Positions 27,417 through 27,867 of a stretch of 64,000 bases of DNA are shown piece after piece; the first letter of the stretch is position 1, and every line of letters starts with the position of its first letter. Origin of the DNA: a virus; IMG/VR virus record IMGVR_UViG_3300034072_001149, positions 64,001 through 128,000 of that record; one strand, 5' to 3'. Below the pieces are notes generated by a model. The model was not told the DNA's origin. It was given only the letters and a program-made list of their open reading frames with translations, and searched no databases. Made by a program: the position numbers and the translations under genes.

Positions 27417-27776
27417 TTATTCTCTCCAACGCAATTTGAACATCATTGCGTCTTTGCCATTTTCAAAGATAACTCCCACACTGGACGAGCAACCGCTGGT
27501 CCATCCTGCTTTTTTGAAGTCACCAAACTTTACATTGCTTTCAAGCCATGGTAACATTTCTGAAAAGGTGGAGGCTATGAATCCAGTGATTCTAACCAAA
27601 TACCATCCTGGATATTTGGAATTCACGGTATCAACAAAATCAAGATCGGGGAAATCGTCTTCCTCAAACATACTGTTGAGTTTGGCTTCTCCCAAGACAC
27701 CATCGGTCTCAGGTTCCGCTACATCGTCGAACCATTCTTCGACGTGATCTGTATTTTCATTACGATAGTAGGGCAT
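27417..27776 (-). CDS. FKLxW-family small protein with acidic N-terminus
   Basis: C-terminal VIFENGKDAMMFKLRW. Confidence 0.7.
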   Translation of the reverse strand: MPYYRNENTDHVEEWFDDVAEPETDGVLGEAKLNSMFEEDDFPDLDFVDTVNSKYPGWYLVRITGFIASTFSEMLPWLESNVKFGDFKKAGWTSGCSSSVGVIFENGKDAMMFKLRWRE

Positions 27777-27792
27777 TTTCTCAACTCACTCT

Positions 27793-27867
27793 TTAAATCA
27801 AACCATAGACGGATTGATAGTGAGGAGGAGCCCGAGGAGCCTAGTGTTGGGTAAGAATCTTTTTCAT
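27793..27867 (-). promoter_or_regulatory. Putative amber-interrupted leader peptide MKKILTQH*APRAPPHYQSVYGLI
   Basis: TAAGG SD, ATG, TAG at codon 9, RAPP, TAA; fills the intergenic gap; CTCACT can pair with AGTGAG in the downstream RBS. Confidence 0.6.

Follow-up and report, generated by a model that had tools for sequence, protein, structure and literature searches.

Why should a giant soil phage that uses the standard genetic code carry, directly upstream of one of its genes, a tiny reading frame in which an in-frame amber codon is followed by a motif known from ribosome-arrest peptides? This question is raised by a locus in a 64,000-nt stretch of viral DNA, here called the window, which corresponds to positions 64001–128000 of the 159.2-kb IMG/VR record IMGVR_UViG_3300034072_001149 (GC content 46%). 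Since CheckV puts the completeness of the record at 34%, it represents a fragment of a much larger phage genome. The genes around the leader are carried by the minus strand in the order ion-channel-like protein, tRNA(CUA), 262-aa class II synthetase core, phosphatase-like protein, 128-aa ORF, leader, 119-aa ORF and Pth2 peptidyl-tRNA hydrolase.

A stop-interrupted leader upstream of a 119-aa gene

The leader and its surroundings consist of the following elements:
27897–27902, minus strand: −35-like box TTGACT; TTGACT-N17-TATAAG is unique in the 159-kb record
27874–27879, minus strand: −10-like box TATAAG, ending 6 nt before the leader ATG
27873–27871, minus strand: TAA stop of the upstream 128-aa ORF
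27844–27867, minus strand: leader codons 1–8, MKKILTQH by translation, with the ATG at 27867–27865
27841–27843, minus strand: in-frame UAG at codon 9, the proposed gate
27823–27840, minus strand: APRAPP, encoded by GCT CCT CGG GCT CCT CCT, with the RAPP core at 27834–27823
27793–27822, minus strand: leader tail HYQSVYGLI and its TAA (27795–27793), not conserved
27417–27776, minus strand: 119-aa gene of a family with the C-terminal sequence ...KDAMMFKLRWR

Translation of the minus strand from 27867 to 27793 gives MKKILTQH*APRAPPHYQSVYGLI*, confirming the stop-interrupted leader that had been read from the sequence. The original prediction thus described the leader correctly, and the exact gap between the flanking genes is 27777–27870. 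The leader ATG lies 3 nt past the TAA of the upstream gene. By analogy with ApdA/ApdP-type arrest, the Pro codon at 27828–27826 is predicted to occupy the P site of a stalled ribosome and the one at 27825–27823 the A site. The whole design in an intergenic position occurs only once in the 159-kb record. A second match, M-x7-TGA-ESARAPP at record position 156431, is located inside a gene in another frame and was discarded as a chance occurrence.

The −35-like and −10-like boxes form a putative promoter, and the position of the latter would imply a leaderless or near-leaderless transcript. A consensus sigma-70 scan did not call TATAAG, since its position 6 is a G, and the promoter assignment is therefore drawn from conservation (see below). 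The sole other GTATAAGTA of the 159-kb record is found at 23879–23887 (minus strand; region 23874–23905), preceded by TTGATT-N16, in the gap upstream of the gene at 23257–23832, and might be another promoter of this kind. No intrinsic terminator was found in the leader gap, and no Rfam family matched the leader stretch.

The 119-aa protein has 82 homologs in the protein database and no match in Pfam, PHROGs, NCBIfam or the protein atlas. Its AlphaFold model has a mean pLDDT of 62 and no Foldseek match at E <= 0.001. The leader sits within a tandem array of small paralogs (27871–28257, minus strand, in the window; 4265–5769 in the related locus L127) that share a C-terminal motif like ...DA..FKLRW, and the 119-aa gene is one member of this array.

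Outside the gated ORFs the genome uses the standard code. Greedy ORF sets covered 92.6% of the record both under the standard code and with TAG as sense, and this identical coding fraction (0.926) led us to reject genome-wide TAG recoding; TAG is the terminator of 22 of 208 ORFs. Three other candidates for TAG extension (56195–57022, 47149–47919 and 58393–58893) were dismissed as they have no domain spanning the TAG. At about 63760–63860 on the plus strand, an open frame ending ...HVRRGPPQQGSLQLR* contains RGPP in a stretch without an assigned ORF; it is on the opposite strand to the neighbouring genes and is probably due to chance.

Conservation of the leader in related giant phages

The 119-aa protein, Pth2 and DNA patterns served as queries and identified ten further loci, giving a comparison set of eleven (the window, L002, L003, L004, L005, L012, L123, L125, L127, L128 and the cultured Sinorhizobium phage Phosso, PV764938, locus L188). 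Locus L129 was treated as Agrobacterium phage Atu_ph07 (490,380 bp). The complete records among the relatives measure 416–490 kb, and the group comprises Atu_ph07-like giant phages of Rhizobiales. Scans of metagenomes revealed no further instances of the leader, and near and distant DNA searches of GenBank phages returned chance matches only.

All eleven leaders are directly followed, on their own strand, by a homolog of the 119-aa gene, including those with a different gene on their upstream side. The combination of TAG and a RAPP-type core is kept throughout, in the more general form of TAG followed by R-x-P-P: each leader consists of an ATG, 5–8 sense codons, TAG, 2–6 codons and R-x-P-P, and the A-site Pro is located 6, 8 or 10 codons past the gate. 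The core is RAPP in five leaders (the window, L002, L003, L004, L005), RGPP in three (L012, L123, L125), RSPP in two (L127, Phosso) and RDPP in L128, so that x is A, G or S in 10 of 11. Upstream of the ATG, a TTGAY pentamer ends 30–31 nt before the start codon in 11/11 loci, even where the upstream gene differs, and is followed after 17 nt by an A/T-rich hexamer (TATAAG, TAAATA, TATAAA or TTAAAT) that ends 6–8 nt before the ATG. No consistent Shine-Dalgarno (SD) sequence precedes the leader ATG across the eleven leaders.

The pattern of substitutions indicates what is being maintained. All six Arg codons (CGG, AGG, CGA, CGC, AGA and CGT) are used at the invariant Arg, which argues that the stretch after the TAG is selected as protein, and the Pro codons of the core vary at the third position only. 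AP precedes the Arg in one clade, VQ in another. Past the PP, each relative differs in peptide sequence, tail length and the place of its second stop; this stop is located anywhere from 28 nt before the main AUG to 8 nt past it, and overlaps the main AUG in L012, L123, L125, L127 and Phosso. Taken as a whole, such conservation is the mark that selection leaves on a short peptide whose functional end is PP. Since none of the eleven leaders has a start codon between TAG and RxPP, selection on this peptide requires ribosomes that pass the TAG.

The beginning of the leaders is rich in Lys and Asn. With 13–17 residues ahead of the A-site Pro in the eleven leaders, no export or membrane signal is present at the N terminus, and the chain cannot leave the tunnel and is therefore not a monitoring substrate. 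In nearly all leaders the codons just before the gate (27844–27849, minus strand, in the window) are His-rich (QH, HH, HV, HHL, THL, HY), and these codons may tune termination versus suppression at the UAG. The leader of L128 (about 5040–5123), MNTHY-TAG-HHPSQARDPP..., lacks a second stop and shares the frame of the main ORF, so that readthrough would give an N-terminally extended protein; its RDPP core falls outside the S/A/G/P set reported for RxPP stalling.

A predicted hairpin over the downstream ribosome-binding site

The original prediction had also proposed that CTCACT and ATCAA can pair with AGTGAG and TTGAT just ahead of the next ATG. These pairs are present in the minimum-energy fold of the window leader, which is built from two arms:
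27814–27824, minus strand: 5′ arm, with the anti-SD CUCACU at 27824–27819 and the inner-stem AUCAA at 27818–27814
27785–27801, minus strand: 3′ arm, with the inner-stem UUGAU at 27801–27797, a bulge and the SD-like AGUGAG at 27790–27785

AGUGAG lies 8 nt before the ATG at 27776; if a ribosome stalled at RAP|P, its A-site codon and mRNA channel would overlap the 5′ arm. While the expected pairs form, the 121-nt fold as such is ordinary relative to shuffled sequences (z = −1.39), and the case therefore rests on comparison with the relatives.

This comparison revealed a two-tier hairpin as the minimum-energy fold in 11/11 leaders. The 5′ arm starts on the P/A-site codons of RxP|P or directly behind them, and the 3′ arm, past a bulge of 4–6 nt, contains a purine-rich element 5–9 nt before the main AUG. 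The paired sequences differ among the phages. In the window clade, CUC(A/G)C pairs with GUGAG and is kept whatever the reading frame; in L123 and L125, the Pro codons CCUCCUCC pair with GGAGG or AGGA (CCUCC:GGAGG); in L127 and Phosso, CGUUCUCC pairs with GGAGAACG; and in L128, CUCC pairs with GGAG. Outside the window clade, the sequestered element is a canonical GGAGG, GGAGA or AGGAG. In the window clade, GUGAG is a weak SD-like motif: upstream of genes in this genome it was observed 6 times versus 2 expected, compared with 39 versus 2.6 for AGGAG.

The SD zone is mostly paired in the eleven leaders (mean P(unpaired) 0.12–0.52). Moreover, the inner stems differ in sequence yet still pair, and with the outer helix fixed and the inner 30 nt shuffled they reach a combined z of −3.95, with a weak value for the window leader itself (z = −0.8). 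Among the six leaders of the window clade, 85% of cells are paired versus 23–49% for slid partners, four pairs are changed on both sides, and the covariation score was reached by 1 of 500 shuffles, in an alignment that is model-fitted, leans towards structure and holds only six related sequences.

The distance from the P site to the main AUG is 45–56 nt in the eleven leaders, so that a stalled ribosome would hold the anti-SD strand yet leave room for initiation. Constrained folds of the window leader predict that GUGAG is largely closed in free mRNA (P(unpaired) 0.07) and when a ribosome occupies the UAG (0.03), and more open when one occupies RAP|P (0.36). More generally, the unpaired fraction of the SD rises in these folds from 0–0.07 to 0.2–0.4 with the ribosome at RAP|P, and shows no rise with a ribosome at the UAG.

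A suppressor tRNA and a second gated gene in the same module

Two further features of the minus strand bear on whether the UAG could be read as sense:
29556–29632, minus strand: tRNA with anticodon CUA (amber suppressor), detected by ARAGORN, the sole tRNA in the window
26876–27334, minus strand: Pth2 peptidyl-tRNA hydrolase (Pfam PF01981, E = 1.2e-16), the second amber-gated ORF

The tRNA(CUA) is encoded 1.7 kb upstream of the leader on the same strand and is presumed to be the key to the UAG gate. A tRNA(CUA) is found in 10 of the 11 records. In nine of them it lies 2–4 kb upstream of the leader, on the leader's strand; L127, a complete record, has just one tRNA(CUA) within its tRNA array, and L128 shows no tRNA on its 25-kb fragment. 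The suppressor tRNAs of the window clade are homologous to one another, with compensatory stem changes and the discriminator G73. In tRNA arrays of L117 (1483–1557) and L119 (1481–1557), the best DNA match to the window tRNA(CUA) is a tRNA-Lys(CUU), 76% over 50 nt, a weak hint that the suppressor may derive from tRNA-Lys. A 262-aa class II aminoacyl-tRNA synthetase core is encoded 53 nt downstream of the tRNA(CUA) (28715–29503, minus strand); it is closest to dimeric GlyRS (PDB 8u2q, E = 2.5e-9; NCBIfam NF003211) and has no anticodon-binding domain.

The Pth2 ORF opens at the ATG at 27334 with MITNSFL-UAG(27313–27311)-EAAAR..., and the first conserved strand of the protein, RIYSIIRGDL, is encoded upstream of the standard-code ATG at 27211. 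The gene has its own promoter-like TTGACA-16-TATGTT (27403–27376) and an AAGGA ribosome-binding site. Its gate is kept in the relatives as a TAG at codon 8, or at codon 4 in Phosso. Atu_ph07 has a tRNA(UCA) and no tRNA(CUA), as also reported previously (PMC6102473), and here the Pth2 gate is a TGA at codon 7. The gate codon thus tracks the type of suppressor, TAG with tRNA(CUA) and TGA in the Atu_ph07 Pth2 with tRNA(UCA), which counts in favour of gating by suppression.

A model for the leader and its alternatives

Every sequence-level expectation of the original reading as an amber-gated RAPP attenuator (gate, core, hairpin over the ribosome-binding site and suppressor tRNA) holds in the relatives, and we consider it likely that the leader is a suppression-gated arrest leader which unmasks a ribosome-binding site and whose input is the reading of UAG as sense. 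The 119-aa gene would then probably be switched on only when the phage's own UAG-reading tRNA works. In our model, the promoter-like element would set the 5′ end of the transcript at, or a few nt before, the leader AUG, and ribosomes would translate eight codons and reach the UAG. Where release factor 1 wins, an 8-residue peptide would be freed about 65 nt upstream of the next start and CUCACU/AGUGAG would stay closed (OFF). Where the charged phage tRNA(CUA) wins, five more codons would be read before the ribosome arrests, its P site occupied by ..RAP-tRNA and its A site by Pro-tRNA. The arrested ribosome would hold the anti-SD strand, which begins inside the A-site codon. A second ribosome could then use the freed ribosome-binding site, 39–43 nt downstream, and the AUG, at 52 nt (ON). 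A ribosome at the UAG should reach only about 13 nt downstream, short of the anti-SD, whereas the stalled ribosome would cover it. Since nothing can pull on a nascent chain of about 14 residues without an export signal, the regulated step would be entry into the arrest, at the gate, and not release from it. The sequences themselves show the anatomy of the leader, its conservation and its occurrence alongside tRNA(CUA); the transcription start, leader translation, readthrough, arrest, unmasking and the effect on the downstream gene belong to the model.

The main alternative explanation does without a true arrest. Ribosomes that pass the UAG might open the hairpin in passing and reinitiate near the second stop, or produce a fusion in L128, with RxPP acting as a brake only. 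Such coupling, in place of arrest, would fit with the position of the second stop, which is close to or overlaps the main AUG, and with L128, whose leader has no such stop and shares the reading frame of the main ORF. This explanation accounts neither for the maintenance of R-x-P-P as amino acids with six Arg codons while the tail varies, nor for an anti-SD that always starts at the stall codons, and we regard it as rather unlikely as a replacement for arrest; coupling and arrest may act in sequence or together. The presence of Pth2, itself UAG-gated, in the same module points in another direction. Short nascent chains as made from minigenes favour peptidyl-tRNA drop-off, and the leader could be a trap or decoy which catches readthrough ribosomes or produces short peptidyl-tRNAs, and thereby feeds or titrates Pth2 or limits expression at high suppression. 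Yet, by geometry, a stalled ribosome would cover the anti-SD and clear the SD and AUG by about 17 nt, which predicts activation, and Pth2 has its own promoter-like site and SD; a role as a trap therefore appears improbable.

The remaining alternatives concern what the gate senses and whether the leader is translated at all. The outcome at any in-frame stop depends on release factor versus suppressor, and prfB provides a precedent for an early stop as a sensor, so that the gate might report release-factor-1 activity, i.e. the host RF1 level or its inactivation during infection, and not the phage tRNA. We consider this very improbable as the gate codon follows the phage's own suppressor, including the TGA of the Pth2 gate in Atu_ph07, and in any case it would be a refinement of the arrest model more than a rival to it. 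Finally, the stretch is tiny, has no Shine-Dalgarno sequence and, in the window, folds unremarkably when viewed alone, as might be expected for an untranslated DNA or RNA signal (a promoter, an operator or a structured 5′ UTR) with a coincidental peptide. However, the substitutions have a three-base periodicity, with six Arg codons and Pro changes at third positions only, RAPP, RGPP and RSPP belong to one functional class, and the in-frame ATG is at a fixed distance from the −35-like box in 11/11 loci, which leaves this explanation with hardly any probability.

Comparison with known arrest peptides and recoding systems

The assignment of RAPP as an ApdA/ApdP-type stalling motif, which the original prediction had taken as established, agrees with the literature (PMC10951233, PMC12992588, PMC7897499). 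In the structures of ApdA and ApdP, RAP occupies the P site and Pro-tRNA the A site, and the bond cannot form (PMC10951233). Arrest at RAPP and RGPP, the most robust cores, depends on fewer upstream contacts, and EF-P does not relieve it (PMC12992588). Selection for stallers yielded RxPP with x = S, A, G or P, in work cited by PMC7897499. For stable ApdA/ApdP arrest, RAPP alone is insufficient and upstream residues modulate the arrest, while RSPP is weaker (PMC7897499). Since RAPP alone is not always enough in ApdA/ApdP, arrest on the 14-residue chain of the phage leader is only a prediction. ApdP originates from Sinorhizobium medicae (PMC7897499), and Sinorhizobium is also the host genus of Phosso.

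Like the phage leader, the RAPP/RGPP arrest peptides ApdA, ApdP, ApcA, CruR and those of Streptomyces uORFs carry R-x-P-P towards the end of a short ORF that lies upstream of the gene under its control (PMC10951233, PMC7897499, PMC12992588). In contrast, ApdA-type peptides have about 100–140 residues with export or membrane signals and no internal stop, and are thought to be released by pulling force, whereas the leader peptide has about 14–18 residues, lacks such a signal, is UAG-gated and belongs to a phage. Furthermore, no SD hairpin is predicted for ApdA/ApdP (PMC7897499), unlike the clear predicted SD hairpin of the phage leader. In this respect our model resembles SecM-secA, MifM-yidC2 and VemP, in which the stalled ribosome opens a stem-loop that hides the downstream SD (PMC7897499, PMC10951233). 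Their input is the effect of secretion force on arrest release, whereas that of the leader would be whether the ribosome reaches the arrest site. In the ErmCL, ErmBL and Cat/Cml leaders, a very short peptide arrests the ribosome near codons 8–10 and thereby opens an SD-sequestering hairpin; arrest there needs an antibiotic in the tunnel, whereas the phage leader would need a suppressor tRNA at an in-frame stop. In prfB, which encodes RF2, an early in-frame stop senses termination versus recoding, but, unlike in the leader, the outcome is a +1 frameshift in the same gene, without suppressor tRNA, arrest peptide or SD hairpin. Readthrough that leads ribosomes to a downstream arrest peptide has been described for the mammalian AMD1 C-tail (PMC13025110). 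Unlike the phage leader, AMD1 is eukaryotic; its arrest site is a second stop codon, 384 nt further on, and the proposed effect is to limit expression, not to activate it.

In recoded phages (crAss-like, Lak, Jade and Agate), suppressor tRNAs have been implicated as temporal post-transcriptional regulators which serve as a timer for late genes, and standard-code relatives of recoded phages with suppressor tRNAs are known (bioRxiv 10.1101/2021.08.26.457843). In those phages, in-frame stops are found in many structural and lysis genes, whereas here, under the standard code, the stop is located in a regulatory leader and one enzyme gene. Suppressor tRNAs are also described in the papers on Atu_ph07 and AP-J-162, which name no targets for them (PMC6102473, PMC11242549). 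Full-text searches of the literature retrieved no description of a stop-gated arrest leader, and a gated leader is not described in the phage stop-codon-recoding papers (bioRxiv 10.1101/2021.08.26.457843).

Overall, the stop-interrupted leader itself is confirmed, and the analysis supports its interpretation as an arrest-peptide attenuator with a new input. We lean slightly towards a more specific view, in which the leader is a dedicated sensor of the state of the genetic code whose only input is the presence, integrity and charging of the suppressor tRNA that the phage itself encodes; in combination with the UAG-gated Pth2, this would give the orphan suppressor tRNAs of standard-code giant phages a regulatory job, for example as a timer or as a checkpoint of tRNA integrity. 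To our knowledge, the inputs of all described bacterial arrest peptides are force, a small molecule or a drug, and gating by stop-codon suppression would, if true, be a new class of input. It would also be a natural counterpart of the amber-suppression reporters of synthetic biology, and would answer the question of what a suppressor tRNA does in a phage without an altered code (raised by PMC6102473 and bioRxiv 10.1101/2021.08.26.457843). Moreover, such leaders may show an early step towards recoding. Two relatives are in culture, Phosso (host Sinorhizobium meliloti) and Atu_ph07 (host Agrobacterium tumefaciens C58), which makes the model directly testable.

A candidate opal-gated site in Atu_ph07

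Atu_ph07 has no ATG-TAG leader. The gene before its 119-aa homolog ends ...KMK-TGA, followed by IVFKPP-TAG (L129, about 4984–5057). Here, CCUCCAUA pairs with UAUGGAG before the main AUG, and a CCA codon is located 53 nt from this AUG. This site may be an opal-gated variant that stalls at Pro-Pro-stop, and we note it as a lead only.
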